A DNA stretch of 64,000 nucleotides from Escherichia phage MRostami-2023e. Of this stretch, positions 3,978 through 54,955 are shown piece after piece. The notes below the pieces were generated by a model. The model worked only from the letters and a program-made list of their open reading frames with translations, did not search any database and was not told the DNA's origin. The stretch is from the sequence record OQ031495. The stretch is one strand, 5' to 3'. Within the stretch, counting starts at the first letter, position 1. Each line of letters begins with the position of its first letter. The position numbers were made by a program, and so were the translations under genes.

Positions 3978-4252
3978 TGGCTNNNNNNNNNNNNNNNNNN
4001 NNNNNNNNNNNNNNNNNNNNNNNNNNNNNNNNNNNNNNNNNNNNNNNNNNNNNNNNNNNNNNNNNNNNNNNNNNNNNNNNNNNNNNNNNNNNNNNNNNNN
4101 NNNNNNNNNNNNNNNNNNNNNNNNNNNNNNNNNNNNNNNNNNNNNNNNNNNNNNNNNNNNNNNNNNNNNNNNNNNNNNNNNNNNATCAAAGAGTAGTTTA
4201 CTTCTCCTCTAGTTGTGTTACTATAGACCTGTCAACTAGAGGAGAAATCAAA

Positions 4253-4711
4253 ATGACTATCAATTCAGACGTTTTTATCCGCCGTAATAAACTCCGTCGA
4301 ATCTTTGAAACGGAGTTCCGCAAAATAAATGCCAGTATAAAAGATGCTGCAAAGTCTCTTGGACTACCAGGCTTTCATATCAAGTATTCTCAACATCTCT
4401 TAGATCGTGCCATCCAGAGAGAAATAGATGAGAATTACGTTTTTGAATTATTTCGTAAAGTAAAAAATCATGTTAAAGAAGTTGCAGAATTTTTATCAAT
4501 GCCGGCACGTCCAGATGTTGATGAAGATTTTGTCGAAGGCGTCGAATATCGCCCAGGCCGTTTAGAAATAACTGATGGAAATCTTTGGTTAGGACTTACA
4601 GTCTGTCGCGAAAATCCAGCATTCAAAATGAAGACTCTTCAATGCAGAATGGCTATTATTAACAGTAAACGACTACCAGGAAAAGCTTCTAAAGCCGTGA
4701 TTAAAATCTAG
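4253..4711 (+). CDS. regB: Sequence-specific endoribonuclease RegB
   Basis: MTINSDVFIRRNKLRR...HIKYSQHLLDRAIQREIDE...GRLEITDGNLWLG...CRMAIINSKRLPGKASKAVIK closely matches T4 RegB; SD GAGGAGA at 4240-4246. Confidence 0.9.
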   Translation: MTINSDVFIRRNKLRRIFETEFRKINASIKDAAKSLGLPGFHIKYSQHLLDRAIQREIDENYVFELFRKVKNHVKEVAEFLSMPARPDVDEDFVEGVEYRPGRLEITDGNLWLGLTVCRENPAFKMKTLQCRMAIINSKRLPGKASKAVIKI

Positions 4712-4719
4712 AGGTAAAC

Positions 4720-5262
4720 ATGAGAAAAGCACTACTCGCTGGTCTATTTGCTCTTTCATTATCAGCACATAGCTCCGAGCATACTTTTAGTAATGTCCAA
4801 CTCGATAACTTGAATTATGCTTATCAGTTTGGGGAACAGTTTTCTAAGGATGGAAAATTTAAAACGCATGAAAATATGCATAAGAAAGGACTTGGATACA
4901 TAATGGCCGCAATACTATGGCAAGAATCATCTGCCGGTATTAATCTTAAAGATAAGAAAGGTCACCATGCGTATGGAATGTTCCAAAATTATCTACCAAC
5001 AATGAGGGCAAGAATTAACCAGCTTGGTTACAATATGACTGATGCCCAAATTAAGAAAATGCTATCTAAGCGGTCTAATTCAGCCAGATGGGCTTATATA
5101 GAATTTTCTTATTGGTTAAATATACATAACGGGGATATAAGAAAAGCTATATCCTCATATAATGCGGGATGGAAGACAAGTGCTGGAAGTAAATATGCTT
5201 CTGAAGTCCTAGAAAAGGCTAATTACCTTAAATCAAATAAACTACTGGAAATAAAAGAATGA
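4720..5262 (+). CDS. Secreted lytic-transglycosylase-like protein
   Basis: N-terminal signal peptide (MRKALLAGLFALSLSAHS); WQESSAG...AYGMFQ...YNAGW resembles SLT-domain catalytic motifs. Confidence 0.5.
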   Translation: MRKALLAGLFALSLSAHSSEHTFSNVQLDNLNYAYQFGEQFSKDGKFKTHENMHKKGLGYIMAAILWQESSAGINLKDKKGHHAYGMFQNYLPTMRARINQLGYNMTDAQIKKMLSKRSNSARWAYIEFSYWLNIHNGDIRKAISSYNAGWKTSAGSKYASEVLEKANYLKSNKLLEIKE

Positions 5263-5606
5263 CCAAAATGTTGGCTTTAATAGTTGGCTTGGTTTCATTT
5301 AACGCTCTTGCTAATACTACATATACTGATGTAACGGAGTATACAAACAGAACGGCGTCTGATTATTGTGGTAAAAGTCAAGAGTGTAAAGTAGATTTTT
5401 CACAAAAATTGTTATATGCGTATAAAGACGGAGAAAAAGATGGGGCGTCTAGTAGGTTCAAGGCGTCTACCTTAATTAAAAGATACTATAAAAAATGGCA
5501 AATATTAGAATGCTCGGTGGCGGAACCTAAAGATAAGGCAGCATGCAATTCTATGGTGGACCGTCTAGTTGACTCTTATAATAGAGGACTTGCAGCAAGT
5601 GATTAA
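5259..5606 (+). CDS. Secreted hypothetical protein
   Basis: Signal peptide MTKMLALIVGLVSFNALA; Cys-containing 115-aa ORF. Confidence 0.45.
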   Translation: MTKMLALIVGLVSFNALANTTYTDVTEYTNRTASDYCGKSQECKVDFSQKLLYAYKDGEKDGASSRFKASTLIKRYYKKWQILECSVAEPKDKAACNSMVDRLVDSYNRGLAASD

Positions 5607-6057
5607 AAACTATATCAAGGGCGATATTGTCGCCCTGTTTTCTAAAGGTAATAATATTGCTCATGGGTGTAATTGTTTTCATACAATGGGCGCCGGTGTA
5701 GCAGGCCAATTAGCAAAGGCTTATCCAAAAATTTTAGAAGCCGATAAACTTCAAACTGCATATGGAGACGAGTCTAAACTCGGGTCTTATTCGGTTTATG
5801 AAAAATATTTTAAGACCCATAAAGCTTATTGCTTTAATCTTTATACGCAGTTTGAGCCTGGACCTAATTTTGAGTACTCTGCTTTAATGAATTGTATAAT
5901 AGAATTAAATGAATTCGGAAAGAATAAGATAACAAAGCCTGTAATTTATATGCCAAGAATTGGTGCCGGTATTGGTGGTGGAAACTGGGATGTCATCGAA
6001 GAGATTTTAGATACGTATTCCACTAAACTAGAAATTGTGATTGTTGATTGGGAACCN
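5599..6057 (+). CDS. Macro-domain protein (TARG1/Poa1p-like), 3' end lost in masked run
   Basis: IAHGCNCFHTMGAGVAGQLAKAYP and MPRIGAGIGGGNWDV match macro-domain ADP-ribose-binding loops; start uncertain (GTG 5599 or TTG 5590). Confidence 0.55.
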
Positions 6058-6480
6058 NNNNNNNNNNNNNNNNNNNNNNNNNNNNNNNNNNNNNNNNNNN
6101 NNNNNNNNNNNNNNNNNNNNNNNNNNNNNNNNNNNNNNNNNNNNNNNNNNNNNNNNNNNNNNNNNNNNNNNNNNNNNNNNNNNNNNNNNNNNNNNNNNNN
6201 NNNNNNNNNNNNNNNNNNNNNNNNNNNNNNNNNNNNNNNNNNNNNNNNNNNNNNNNNNNNNNNNNNNNNNNNNNNNNNNNNNNNNNNNNNNNNNNNNNNN
6301 NNNNNNNNNNNNNNNNNNATGGACTGTTTTTTTTACTTTATGTAACGATGAAATGATATGTGATTTTGATTATTGGTGTTATTGCTATTGATACAATAAA
6401 GGATGTACAAATCATACAGGTGAAGGTTTCTATTCCGGGTTTCAACCGTATCCAGACTTTGTNNNNNNNNGTGAACCTAA

Positions 6481-6663
6481 ATGAAATTAACTAAAGAAGA
6501 GAAAGCTAAACTGTTCGAACTTATCCATGACCTATTGGACGAGCAAGCAGCCACCAATGCGTACGATGAATATGCTCCTTTAACAGATGAAGAATATCAA
6601 GCATTGATGGAATCATTTGACAGGAAAGAACAAGAACTCATTGACTACGTGAATTCACTATAA
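6481..6663 (+). CDS. Hypothetical acidic protein
   Basis: 60-aa ORF. Confidence 0.45.
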   Translation: MKLTKEEKAKLFELIHDLLDEQAATNAYDEYAPLTDEEYQALMESFDRKEQELIDYVNSL

Positions 6664-6672
6664 GGGACTCTT

Positions 6673-7254
6673 ATGGCTAGTTTAATTTTTACATATGCCG
6701 CTATGAATGCTGGTAAGTCTGCTTCATTACTTACTGCCGCACATAACTATAAAGAACGTGGCATGGGTGTATTAGTTCTTAAACCGGCTATTGATACTCG
6801 CGATTCAAAAGGTGAAATAGTCTCTCGTATTGGTATTCGTCAGGATGCCAATATAATTACAAAAGACATGGATATCTTTGAATTCTATAAATGGGCTGCA
6901 GCACAAAAGGATATTCACTGTGTATTTGTTGACGAAGCTCAGTTCTTAACTACTGAAAAGGTGTATCAACTTAGTCGTATTGTTGACGTATACAATGTGC
7001 CGGTAATGGCATATGGACTACGAACAGATTTTAAAGGTAATCTATTTGAAGGTTCTCAAGCATTAATGGCTATTGCCGATAAGCTTGTTGAACTTAAAGG
7101 TGTCTGTCATTGTGGTAAAAAGGCCACAATGGTAGCTAGAGTCACGGAAGACGGACTTCCAATTACAGATGGCAGTCAAATTGAAATTGGTGATACCGAT
7201 AGATATGTGTCATTATGCCGGAAGCATTGGAATGATTTGACAGGGTTGTTATAA
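6673..7254 (+). CDS. tk: Thymidine kinase
   Basis: MASLIFTYAAMNAGKSASLL...VFVDEAQF...CHCGKKA... near-identical to T4 Tk; P-loop and zinc-ribbon cysteines present. Confidence 0.92.
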   Translation: MASLIFTYAAMNAGKSASLLTAAHNYKERGMGVLVLKPAIDTRDSKGEIVSRIGIRQDANIITKDMDIFEFYKWAAAQKDIHCVFVDEAQFLTTEKVYQLSRIVDVYNVPVMAYGLRTDFKGNLFEGSQALMAIADKLVELKGVCHCGKKATMVARVTEDGLPITDGSQIEIGDTDRYVSLCRKHWNDLTGLL

Positions 7255-7257
7255 ATA
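7250..7257 (+). promoter_or_regulatory. Candidate T4-type late promoter (TATAAATA)
   Basis: Exact TATAAATA octamer about 25 nt upstream of the 7282 start. Confidence 0.4.
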
Positions 7258-7281
7258 CTAATATCTAACCAAGAGGTATAT

Positions 7282-7494
7282 ATGCAGCAATTAAACGAAA
7301 GACAACTTCGTAATCTTACTGTAACCCAATTGGATGAAATCCGAAGAGAATTAGGACATTCTATTTCTCATTTAAACGAGGATATCCGTCAAACTGGTTC
7401 TAAAGCTGATTATACACGCAAGCGCAAGCTGGAAAAATACCTCACAGATGTTAAGGCCGTCCAAAGGCGAAAAATAAATACTGGCCAAAATTAA
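7282..7494 (+). CDS. Hypothetical protein
   Basis: 70-aa ORF with SD GAGG upstream. Confidence 0.5.
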
Positions 7495-51770: not shown

Positions 51771-51946
51771 ACAAGATAGTTAAATGGTTTAAAAGCTGGG
51801 ACGATGGTGTCGGTCCAGAAGATTGGCTGGATGTTCTTGAAGAGAATATGGCTAAAGAATTCCAGAAACACGAAGAGAAGCTCGTCGAAGATGAAGGCGA
51901 ACGTATTGTAAAACTTTATATGGGTGAACCATCGAGGAAATTATAA
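51767..51946 (+). CDS. Hypothetical protein
   Basis: 59-aa ORF overlapping upstream stop. Confidence 0.4.
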   Translation: MNKIVKWFKSWDDGVGPEDWLDVLEENMAKEFQKHEEKLVEDEGERIVKLYMGEPSRKL

Positions 51947-52410
51947 TGGATGCTATGTTATTTAAAATGTACTTGCTTGAAGCCAAGTCGTTTAAACATA
52001 TACCAGTAGAAGATAAGACTCCACTAGAAATAGCTATTCTCATTAACAAAAGTCTAAATAATCCGCAATATATCGTAGAAGAATTCTGCAAATTGCAGAT
52101 TCCTAAAGGTTACAAAATTCGTGTAGAGCGAGTTGGAGCTATTACTCATTCTAAAAATTCTCCGTTTAGTCTTGAAGAAGGCATAAAGGACTTAGGTTAT
52201 GAATCTACGGAAAATGCCGTTTATGTGAATCCAGAAAAGCGTTTAGACCTGTTTGAAAAGCGAGACCATAAGTATTTTGCCAAAAAATACTTTATTACAT
52301 CATTAGCAGATTTAACCCATTTGCAACGAGCTATTTGGAAATTTTTTAAGACAAAAGGTGTAGCGCTAGAAACATTCTCCGAGCAGCCTAGTTTTTATTT
52401 AGGTGAATAA
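51946..52410 (+). CDS. Hypothetical protein
   Basis: 154-aa ORF. Confidence 0.5.
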   Translation: MDAMLFKMYLLEAKSFKHIPVEDKTPLEIAILINKSLNNPQYIVEEFCKLQIPKGYKIRVERVGAITHSKNSPFSLEEGIKDLGYESTENAVYVNPEKRLDLFEKRDHKYFAKKYFITSLADLTHLQRAIWKFFKTKGVALETFSEQPSFYLGE

Positions 52411-52807: not shown

Positions 52808-53389
52808 ATGACATGTCAATCTGAACTTCAAGAACGTGAATACCTAACAAATCTGATTGATAGCAAATTCACCCGCCAAGAACAAAACATTCTCTGGGCT
52901 TGCACCGATTCTAAGGAAGACCCGGATTTCCACTATGAATTAGACCATCTTGTTCGTAAGCATATGACTTCTACAGTACCAGTAGAACTCTACCGTGGTG
53001 TAACTCCAGAAGAAGTAGAACGTCTTTCCCTTCTTTCTGTTGGATGCCATTGGTCTCCTGGGCGAGTAACATCGTTCACAACTGATTTCAGTACAGCTCG
53101 TCAATTCTCTGGGAGATGGGAATATCAGACGTACACTATTCTTAGTCTCAGGAATGCTCCATTCATTTTTGATTACTACCAAAACATGATTAACATTGTA
53201 CTCGCCGGAAAGAACCCTAAGCATGTTATGGAAGAAACGCGTGTTGACGTCCTAGATATGATTGAATCTGAACAAGAGTACATGGTCTCAGGCATCTCTC
53301 GATTTGAGATTGTGGAAATTGAAGACTTAGAATATGACCCTTTATCTCGATTATACAAAATCATTCATTTGAAAATGTTGAATTTTTAG
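52808..53389 (+). CDS. ADP-ribosyltransferase, ModA/ModB-like (paralog 1)
   Basis: R-S-E triad candidates: LYRGV, FSTARQF, EQEYMVSG; 193 aa. Confidence 0.6.
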   Translation: MTCQSELQEREYLTNLIDSKFTRQEQNILWACTDSKEDPDFHYELDHLVRKHMTSTVPVELYRGVTPEEVERLSLLSVGCHWSPGRVTSFTTDFSTARQFSGRWEYQTYTILSLRNAPFIFDYYQNMINIVLAGKNPKHVMEETRVDVLDMIESEQEYMVSGISRFEIVEIEDLEYDPLSRLYKIIHLKMLNF

Positions 53390-53446: not shown

Positions 53447-54055
53447 ATGTTTATGCCGTATAACGAGTGTGAAATTGAAGAAATGGTTCGTCGTGCTCAA
53501 AACCCCGAATATCAAGATGTATTGCAGTACGAAATTGATAGTCAATTCAACGATAATGAACAAAGCATCCTTTGGCAGTGTATGGAAAACAAGCCAGACT
53601 GTATTCAACAGGAGTTAAGTTCAATCGTTCGTAGAAATTGGACGTCTTCTGTTCCTGAGACAATGTATCGTGGAATCTCTAAGAAAACTATGGCCACACT
53701 TGATGATAAAGGCATTGGTAGTATTATTAAATTTGACAGAGTAATGAGCTTCAGCCCAGTGTTCGGTGTAGCACGTAACTTTGCTTCGTATAATTTTTAC
53801 GGAACATTTAATATGTTCTGCATCAAAGATGCACCATTTGCTTTCAACTTCCGTGAACATATGCTTAACATGATTCTGGCTGCGCCATCTTGTGAGTTCA
53901 ATGGAGCTTTCCCTGAAGCGACAAGACGGTCTAATGCTAGACTTATATCTGACGAATGTGAATTTATGCTCCCTATAGGGACTACACTGCGTGTAGATTC
54001 TATTATTCAAGATGGACGTTATACAATCTGGAATCTGTCTATTGTCAGTTACTGA
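53447..54055 (+). CDS. ADP-ribosyltransferase, ModA/ModB-like (paralog 2)
   Basis: MYRGI, MSFSPVFGVARNF, DECEFMLP; colinear with 52808-53389; 202 aa. Confidence 0.6.
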   Translation: MFMPYNECEIEEMVRRAQNPEYQDVLQYEIDSQFNDNEQSILWQCMENKPDCIQQELSSIVRRNWTSSVPETMYRGISKKTMATLDDKGIGSIIKFDRVMSFSPVFGVARNFASYNFYGTFNMFCIKDAPFAFNFREHMLNMILAAPSCEFNGAFPEATRRSNARLISDECEFMLPIGTTLRVDSIIQDGRYTIWNLSIVSY

Positions 54056-54208: not shown

Positions 54209-54955
54209 ATGTTATCAAATAATAAAATTAACAAAATCAATCGTCGTCTTGACCACACCAGAGCTTCTGCGAAGAGACGCTCTAAGGATTTTAACTTAGA
54301 CTTTAATTACCTTAAAAACATTCTTGATCAAAAGGTCTGCGCTTACTCAGGTGAATCTTTTAATAACTCTGTTGAAGGTGAGAAATTATCCTTAGAACGT
54401 TTTAATAATGATATAGGCTACATTAAAGGTAATGTCATCCCAGTTAAGAAAAAATATAACACGGCTCGTTCTGATTTAACATTAGAAGAACTTATTGAGA
54501 AACGTGATGCCATTGCAAGACGTATCGCTAATCCTTCTGCCCGTAAAGTAGAGAAACTTAATCTCGACGAGAAGAAATGGGCCCAAATTAAAAAGGTTTA
54601 TGGCACTATTTTAAAAATCCGAGCAAAACGTGAAAATCGTGTTAAGCATATGGCGAACATGATGAAAAATCAACCTTTATCTAACGAATCTAAACTTAGA
54701 ATTGTTGCTTTGAAAGCACGCATTAATGGCTCACATCAAGCAGAAGGCCATGAACTTACTAAACTCAATGTTCTTCTTAAAGGCTCTGACTGGAAAACTA
54801 AAACTAAATTAACTGACGCTGAATCGCTTTTCGATACATATGATAAAGTTATCCAAGGTCTGCAACGTTTTGAAAAGATTGGTTTCATTGGTAAATTAAA
54901 ATTGAAACGTGGCTTACCACTTAGCGCATCATTATTCCAACTGATTAAAGGTTAA
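54209..54955 (+). CDS. Hypothetical basic protein at the T4 srd position
   Basis: 248 aa; N-terminal CAYSG...LERFNNDIGYIKGNVIPV is loosely HNH-like but lacks the catalytic His. Confidence 0.45.
   Translation: MLSNNKINKINRRLDHTRASAKRRSKDFNLDFNYLKNILDQKVCAYSGESFNNSVEGEKLSLERFNNDIGYIKGNVIPVKKKYNTARSDLTLEELIEKRDAIARRIANPSARKVEKLNLDEKKWAQIKKVYGTILKIRAKRENRVKHMANMMKNQPLSNESKLRIVALKARINGSHQAEGHELTKLNVLLKGSDWKTKTKLTDAESLFDTYDKVIQGLQRFEKIGFIGKLKLKRGLPLSASLFQLIKG

Follow-up and report, generated by a model that had tools for sequence, protein, structure and literature searches.

The gene at positions 5599 to 6057 of the window, by which we mean the whole 64,000-nucleotide stretch of DNA from Escherichia phage MRostami-2023e analysed here (record OQ031495), encodes a real, intact, stand-alone macrodomain of 155 residues and, as judged by sequence comparison, is the Mosigvirus orthologue of T4 tk.4/adfM. 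By analogy with characterized enzymes, we consider it quite probable that the protein is an AdfM-type orphan antitoxin, removing the ADP-ribose added by DarT2 through an SCO6735-type active site. The gene is already known: a macro domain has been annotated in near-identical genomes, and the T4 orthologue has been assigned as AdfM. What the comparisons presented here add is an invariant glutamine (Q84) at the column of the catalytic lysine together with a conserved Asn25, the finding that the protein is not a DarG equivalog, and its placement in a lineage apart from that of PhiKZ AdfM. The gene and its surroundings comprise the following features of the window.

4253 to 4711, plus strand: regB endoribonuclease, the upstream landmark (Pfam REGB_T4 PF10715, E=3.1e-69).
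4720 to 5262: vs.1-like SLT-type protein (phrog_600; weak SLT match under the Pfam cut-off).
5259 to 5606, plus strand: vs (valyl-tRNA synthetase modifier), directly upstream and co-directional (phrog_1256, E=1.8e-35; annotated in moskry, T4 and BW-1).
5584 to 5601, plus strand: ribosome-binding site GAGGA (5584-5588) and GTG start (5599-5601), read from the sequence.
5599 to 6057, plus strand: macrodomain gene, orthologue of T4 tk.4/adfM (ORF and translation, 153 of 155 codons visible).
6058 to 6318, no strand: masked N-run, read in the sequence; its content is deduced from the moskry gene map (coordinate offset 1258).
6481 to 6663: tk.1-like DUF7438 protein (domain match).
6673 to 7254, plus strand: tk (thymidine kinase), the downstream landmark (Pfam TK PF00265, E=7.3e-57).
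52808 to 53389 and 53447 to 54055: two Mod-type ADP-ribosyltransferase ORFs (phrog_832, 'RNA polymerase ADP-ribosylase').

The window is DNA of an RB69-like Mosigvirus. Megablast of positions 5259-6057 matched 377 phage records, the best being Escherichia phage vB_EQ1 (100%) and phage moskry (99%), a member of the genus Mosigvirus within the RB69-like T-even phages. In moskry the macro gene is annotated as 'macro domain protein' (moskry_131), and all 153 visible residues of the window protein are identical to it. The ORF was found exactly where the original prediction had placed it, in the regB-tk region, with regB and vs upstream and tk downstream according to Pfam and phrog matches. It begins with the GTG at 5599-5601 and stays open through 6057, where the N-run begins. 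The loss of its 3′ end in the masked run, also part of that prediction, is true but trivial: the gene has 155 codons plus a stop in both vB_EQ1 (100% identical) and moskry (99% identical), and the mask covers no more of it than residues 154-155 (LL) and the stop (about 6058-6066). Judging from moskry, the N-run covers the final 9 nt of the macro gene and extends through all of the tk.3-like gene into the beginning of the tk.2-like gene. On the opposite strand, all ORFs overlapping the macro gene are 52 aa or shorter, leaving no competing gene there.

A tblastn search retrieved T4 ORF 60.5 (155 aa, 84.5% identity), and comparison of the window protein with T4 Tk.4 gave 129 identities over 153 residues (84%). 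In the T4 record X04567, ORF 60.5 occupies the position of tk.4, flanked by ORF 60.9 (vs, 115 aa) on one side and, on the other, by ORFs 60.1, 59.9 and 59.7, after which comes tk. The gene order vs-macro-tk.3-tk.2-tk.1-tk is common to the window phage, moskry and T4. BW-1, at 58% identity, also has the order vs, macro, tk, as does Klebsiella phage Mexia, at 50%, though with one extra ORF between vs and the macro gene. Beyond their equal length and their shared place between vs and tk.3, the two T-even proteins match at H22, N25, Q84 and most of the loop glycines. They differ at position 127, which is Lys in T4 and Gly here, and their phages belong to different genera, Tequatrovirus and Mosigvirus, respectively.

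Homologues were present in 2845 of 50,697 phage records, and Macro came out as the most frequent ADP-ribose-processing domain of phages in an independent 2022 survey (PMC9503650). In bacteria, a scan with one genome taken per species further detected 346 relatives on chromosomes, which have the same motifs and are no more than 45% identical. At 52 bacterial loci, the 95 ORFs lying nearest to the relatives were scanned against Pfam: they were heterogeneous housekeeping genes, along with three NADAR and two NUDIX genes, and DarT was absent from the families hit at least twice, of which the 25 commonest were covered. Since the bacterial contexts are heterogeneous and no DarT stands among these families, the distribution fits a source in a stand-alone housekeeping-type hydrolase like SCO6735 and not in a toxin-antitoxin module.

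Assignment to the macrodomain family was evident from both profile and structure searches. The profile search that the original prediction had suggested as a check, with Pfam Macro PF01661, gave 28.5 bits (E=1.6e-6), above the gathering cut-off of 22, in an alignment that spans positions 2-117 of the 118 in the profile, and the protein also matched phrog_335 (E=5.8e-66). A search of 5.8 billion proteins retrieved 342 relatives, of which 87 were aligned (alignment A1). The AlphaFold2 model built on this alignment (pLDDT 96.5, pTM 0.91) showed an alternating beta/alpha pattern, with the three-layer alpha/beta/alpha fold and the two conserved glycine-rich ADP-ribose loops (aa 20-35 and 119-128) that characterize the macro fold. 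Foldseek against the PDB returned TARG1 (4e-10), Poa1p (9e-10), BT1257 (3e-9), Thermus aquaticus DarG (TaqDarG; 1e-7) and Mycobacterium tuberculosis DarG (MtbDarG; 2e-7) as the top matches, with a probability of 1.00 to TARG1, Poa1p, BT1257 and DarG; viral nsp3-type macrodomains ranked one to two orders of magnitude lower. Searched against PDB sequences, the A1 profile likewise gave BT1257 (1.5e-16), TARG1 (1.8e-16), MtbDarG (1.2e-14), Poa1p (2e-14) and SCO6735 (6e-14). The top 15 PDB matches (1.5e-16 to 2.8e-8) were all BT1257, TARG1, DarG, Poa1p or SCO6735, compared with 1.5e-4 for coronavirus nsp3 macrodomains. Profile and fold searches agree in supporting membership of the ALC1-like branch (TARG1/Poa1p/DarG) and not of the MacroD/viral nsp3 branch or of the PARG and macroH2A classes, as the original prediction had held in naming the TARG1/Poa1p type. 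TARG1/OARD1 and Poa1p were the best structural matches, agreeing with the window protein in overall length and in both ADP-ribose loops.

Both peptides that had been quoted as ADP-ribose loops are present, as the first and last of the three active-site features listed here.

5656 to 5727, plus strand: loop 1, substrate-binding, IAHGCNCFHTMGAGVAGQLAKAYP, aa 20-43, with H22, G23 and N25 (codon 5671-5673), from homologue conservation.
5836 to 5862, plus strand: motif NLYTQFEPG, aa 80-88, with the Q84 codon at 5848-5850, from alignment.
5950 to 5982, plus strand: loop 2, diphosphate-binding, MPRIGAGIGGG, aa 118-128, from alignment.

Among the 87 aligned homologues, loop 1 retains N25 in 86, H22 in 85, and G33 and A35 in all. 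N25 aligns with Asn27 of SCO6735 and N23 of PhiKZ gp104, each of which is needed for activity (PMC9411070; PMC13309987). N80, Y82 and Q84 of the central motif are invariant (87/87). Profile alignment with TARG1 and MAFFT alignment with reference enzymes placed Q84 at the column occupied by the catalytic lysine in TARG1 (K84), DarG (K80) and PhiKZ gp104, and by Gln85 in SCO6735. In loop 2, P119, I121, G122 and G124 are invariant across the same homologues, and G126 stands at the position of TARG1 D125, where the family has Ala (46) or Gly (41) and Asp in none of the 87. The catalytic K84/D125 dyad of TARG1 has no counterpart here, Q84 and G126 standing in its place, a replacement that the original prediction had missed. 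The alignments instead suggest an Asn/Gln site (N25/Q84) like that of SCO6735, and we infer that the window protein uses this pair for catalysis.

Among the closest known parallels are the Gln-type ALC1-like proteins SCO6735 of Streptomyces coelicolor and BT1257 of Bacteroides (PDB 5E3B, 2FG1), the latter being the best PDB sequence match of the window protein. Both have the Asn/Gln pair, N25 and Q84 corresponding to Asn27 and Gln85 of SCO6735, the position of the TARG1 Asp is Ala or Gly, and all of these proteins are stand-alone and not next to DarT. SCO6735 has been proven to cleave the thymidine-linked ADP-ribose made by DarT; its Q85A mutant is inactive and its N27S mutant nearly so, both losing hydrolysis of DarT-made dT-ADPr on single-stranded DNA, and the mechanism proposed in that work is water-mediated and backbone-assisted (PMC9411070). 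Nevertheless, identity to the two proteins is only about 22-27%, and their loop 1 reads HxCNDxGGWGKG, whereas that of the window protein reads HGCNCFHTMGAG. Of the features that define the subclass, the Gln at the Lys position and the loop 1 Asn were found, whereas the mobile loop that is longer by 5-6 residues and carries Lys89 in SCO6735 was not; the loop after Q84 has 7 residues in 71 of the 87 family members and 10 in 15, with a six-column gap relative to BT1257.

Functional evidence comes from T4. In a HIDEN-SEQ preprint (bioRxiv, 2025), tk.4 was the single significant hit among T4 genes needed on a DarTG2 host. Its clean knock-out proved sensitive to DarTG2, and the gene was renamed adfM (anti-DarT factor Macrodomain); the authors noted the structural similarity of Tk.4 to the M. 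tuberculosis DarG macrodomain and proposed, on genetic evidence, that AdfM enzymatically removes ADP-ribose from DNA (10.1101/2025.11.20.689424). Of the two roles that the original prediction had offered, the countering of DarT-type defences is supported genetically for the T4 orthologue by the same work (10.1101/2025.11.20.689424). A phage macrodomain with this activity is PhiKZ gp104, which in vitro strips an oligonucleotide of the ADP-ribose made by DarT2 and also rescues cells exposed to this toxin, and whose N23A mutant is impaired (PMC13309987). SCO6735, DarG and TARG1 are further precedents for the removal of ADP-ribose from DarT2-modified thymidine. By analogy, we infer that the window protein may itself remove ADP-ribose from DNA.

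In the mechanism that we propose, the protein would act on the phage side as an 'orphan antitoxin', countering DarTG2, a defence system of the host. DarT2 blocks replication by modifying thymidines in single-stranded phage DNA with ADP-ribose, and the macrodomain would scan the replicating single-stranded phage DNA for these marks. ADP-ribose would be bound between loop 1 (HGCNCFHTMGAG) and loop 2 (PRIGAGIGGG), with Gln84, held by Asn25, positioning the distal ribose. Cleavage of the thymine N3-ribose bond would then be water-mediated and backbone-assisted instead of lysine-based, yielding free ADP-ribose and intact DNA. Several findings count against this anti-DarT reading. The catalytic Lys of DarG and TARG1 and the Asp of TARG1 are missing from the window protein, as is the extended mobile loop that aids DNA activity in SCO6735; single-sequence similarity to Poa1p, an ADP-ribose-1′′-phosphate phosphatase, exceeds that to DarG; and DarG models give 32 bits, compared with 133 for PhiKZ gp104.

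The relation to DarG of DarTG2 (PDB 5M31, 5M3I, 7OMU) is one of class, loop 1 Asn and presumed substrate, dT-ADPr on single-stranded DNA, with fold matches of 1e-7 to 5e-7. The differences are that DarG Lys80 is Gln here and that the phage gene has neither a C-terminal DarT-binding domain nor an adjacent darT, its neighbours being vs and tk.3. The NCBIfam antitoxin_DarG model (NF048014) gave 32 bits against a cut-off of 250, and PADLOC DarG gave 32.3 bits for the window protein and 132.9 for PhiKZ gp104. The FPTK catalytic Lys, present at that column in TaqDarG, MtbDarG and PhiKZ gp104, is absent from the window protein, which has YTQF. Capture of a DarG gene was rejected because the DarG models score low and both the Lys and the C-terminal domain are missing.

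PhiKZ gp104 has also been named 'AdfM' (Cell Rep 2026, PMC13309987). Like Tk.4, it is a stand-alone phage macrodomain countering DarTG2, and it shares the loop 1 Asn (N23, corresponding to N25). It is, however, a close relative of DarG (E=9e-25 to MtbDarG) that keeps the FPTK Lys, whereas the window protein has Q84 and no such Lys, and the only BLASTP match between the two is a 23-residue stretch around loop 1. On this sequence evidence, the name AdfM covers two independently recruited enzymes of separate lineages, PhiKZ gp104 and the Tk.4 type. More tentatively, and with some doubt, we suggest that the T-even AdfM of the Tk.4 type may represent a separate Lys-less, short-loop, Gln-type TARG1-like branch, common to many stand-alone chromosomal bacterial genes and recruited independently of PhiKZ AdfM. 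If so, the branch would operate by a variant mechanism, water-mediated and without the long DNA-binding loop. Moreover, because the catalytic site resembles that of SCO6735, an enzyme whose further substrates are uracil-ADP-ribose in RNA and ADP-ribose on proteins, protection from more than one ADP-ribosylating defence would be possible.

The toxin of DarTG2, the system to which the T4 phenotype is specific, modifies DNA, and this phenotype would be left unexplained if the protein instead hydrolysed a small molecule, either as a Poa1p-like ADP-ribose-1′′-phosphate phosphatase or by acting on O-acetyl-ADP-ribose or ADP-ribose-based immune signals. We regard this alternative as improbable, although Poa1p was the second-best family both by single-sequence search (E about 1e-8) and by fold (9e-10), and although its H23 and S30 match H22 (85/87) and T29 (56/87). 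The name of phrog_335 is 'phosphatase', and the same label in several GenBank records stems from the Poa1p-like reading. To our knowledge, no Appr1p-generating pathway exists in the T4 life cycle. A review has argued that soluble ADP-ribose derivatives may be the substrates of many phage Macro domains (PMC9503650). Against this alternative, the invariant N..Q pair of the present family is the one on which SCO6735 depends to cleave dT-ADPr (PMC9411070). Poa1p, a small-molecule phosphatase, has Ser at the Q84 column.

Two Mod-type genes are present in the window, as the original prediction had stated in raising self-inflicted ADP-ribosylation as a possible target. T4 Alt and Mod enzymes modify arginine. 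That the macrodomain removes ADP-ribose or RNA-linked ADP-ribose placed by Alt, ModA or ModB on proteins of the host, among them RNA polymerase and ribosomal proteins, thereby tuning or recycling these marks, appears most unlikely to us, given that the closest enzymes act on thymine and uracil bases, acidic residues and Appr1p (PMC9411070, PMC13036486). With the substrates of the closest macrodomains lying elsewhere, the suggested reversal of the phage's own modification finds no support, and the macro gene is moreover unlinked to modA/modB, about 47 kb away in the window. We know of no tested TARG1-like macrodomain that cleaves arginine ADP-ribose. Arginine-specific macrodomains nonetheless exist in principle, MavL being the cited case (PMC13036486). 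TARG1 itself also removes thymine- and uracil-linked ADP-ribose (PMC13036486).

Protection without hydrolysis, by binding DarT2 or by shielding ADP-ribosylated sites, is suggested by the catalytically dead SCO6735 Q85A, DarG K80A and TARG1 K84A, which inhibit DarT in vitro, SCO6735 most strongly (PMC9411070), and by AdfA and AdfB, which appear to block the toxin and not to reverse the mark (PMC11825919), but it is very hard to credit here, since the window protein has no C-terminal DarT-binding domain (155 aa, matching only positions 4-140 of the 329-338 of DarG models) and since N25, Q84 and all ADP-ribose-contacting glycines are strictly conserved in 87 homologues, some of them encoded on bacterial chromosomes, which speaks for an enzyme.

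Taken as an orphan antitoxin, the protein would exemplify a general phage strategy in which an enzyme erases a DNA modification made by the host. The T4 NADAR protein AdfN (gene 30.3) counters DarTG1 and not DarTG2 (PMC11825919); in T-even phages, AdfN is the eraser of guanine marks, directed against DarTG1, and the macrodomain would be that of thymine marks, directed against DarTG2. A correct name would also be of use, as existing records read 'phosphatase', 'hypothetical protein', 'ADP-ribose binding module' or 'RNase III inhibitor', and, with homologues in so many phage records, any function assigned transfers widely.

The genes regB, vs.1, vs, tk.4, tk.3-tk.1 and tk form a tightly packed, co-directional cluster, and for this reason the macro gene is probably produced together with its neighbours. 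The regB-tk region of T4 is transcribed early. With its GTG start, the macro gene reaches 8 nt into the end of vs (stop codon TAA 5604-5606), which makes translational coupling of the two genes probable. The same codon is annotated as the start in moskry; in T4 the aligned position is an ATG, with a 4-nt overlap with vs compared with the 8-nt overlap here. A longer ORF from the TTG at 5569 was considered and rejected, because the T4 ATG aligns with GTG 5599, the Shine-Dalgarno sequence GAGGA precedes this GTG and GenBank annotations use it. A promoter scan of positions 4200-7400 returned 9 sigma-70-like sites against 10.9 expected. Separately, a terminator-like hairpin was observed at 5618-5636, identical in T4 and BW-1 but broken in Mexia, with a fold z-score of only -1.66.

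The name AdfM (anti-DarT factor Macrodomain) has been given by two papers to non-orthologous phage macrodomains, one of which is PhiKZ gp104 (PMC13309987). We set the gp104 sequence from that paper against the macrodomain ORF at window 5599-6057: gp104 is a DarG-like, Lys-type macrodomain enzyme, whereas the T4 Tk.4 family is of the Gln type. The shared name is therefore a nomenclature trap when annotations are transferred. Labels for the macro gene itself also differ by record ('phosphatase', 'hypothetical protein', 'ADP-ribose binding module' and 'RNase III inhibitor'). GenBank product names near the gene in the Mosigvirus phage moskry (L001) proved unreliable (L001 1032-4004 and 4805-5017): 'endoribonuclease' is attached to five separate ORFs, RegB being only L001:2995-3453, and the tk.3 homologue carries the label 'putative ABC transporter ATP-binding protein'.

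A terminator-like hairpin was observed 20 nt into the macro ORF:
5618-5636, + strand, AGGGCGAT-ATT-GTCGCCCT, followed by GTTTTCT
The fold z-score of this candidate was only -1.66. The 26-nt block TATATCAAGGGCGATATTGTCGCCCT showed no differences between the window, T4 and phage BW-1, where the macro protein is just 58% identical; in Klebsiella phage Mexia, the candidate hairpin was disrupted.

Stand-alone relatives at bacterial chromosomal loci (L003-L082) carry the HGCNC..MG and PxIGxGIxGG motifs, as does the macro ORF product; they occur commonly in Rhodobacterales, Desulfobacter, Verrucomicrobia and Hymenobacter, among other groups. Their nearest neighbours, among the 25 commonest Pfam families, included NADAR (3/95) and NUDIX (2/95) proteins, which hints that thymine- and guanine-specific ADP-ribose erasers are occasionally paired.

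The window also encodes ADP-ribosyltransferases, arranged in tandem and assigned to phrog_832; a Pfam search returned no match for either gene.
51946-52410, MRH-family gene, preceding the pair
52808-53389, + strand, ModA/ModB-like ADP-ribosyltransferase gene
53447-54055, + strand, ModA/ModB-like ADP-ribosyltransferase gene
54209-54955, Srd-like anti-sigma gene, after the pair

Upstream of the regB region lies a further ORF, presumably a denV homologue:
702-1250, + strand, pyrimidine dimer DNA glycosylase domain (PF03013, 4.5e-14)
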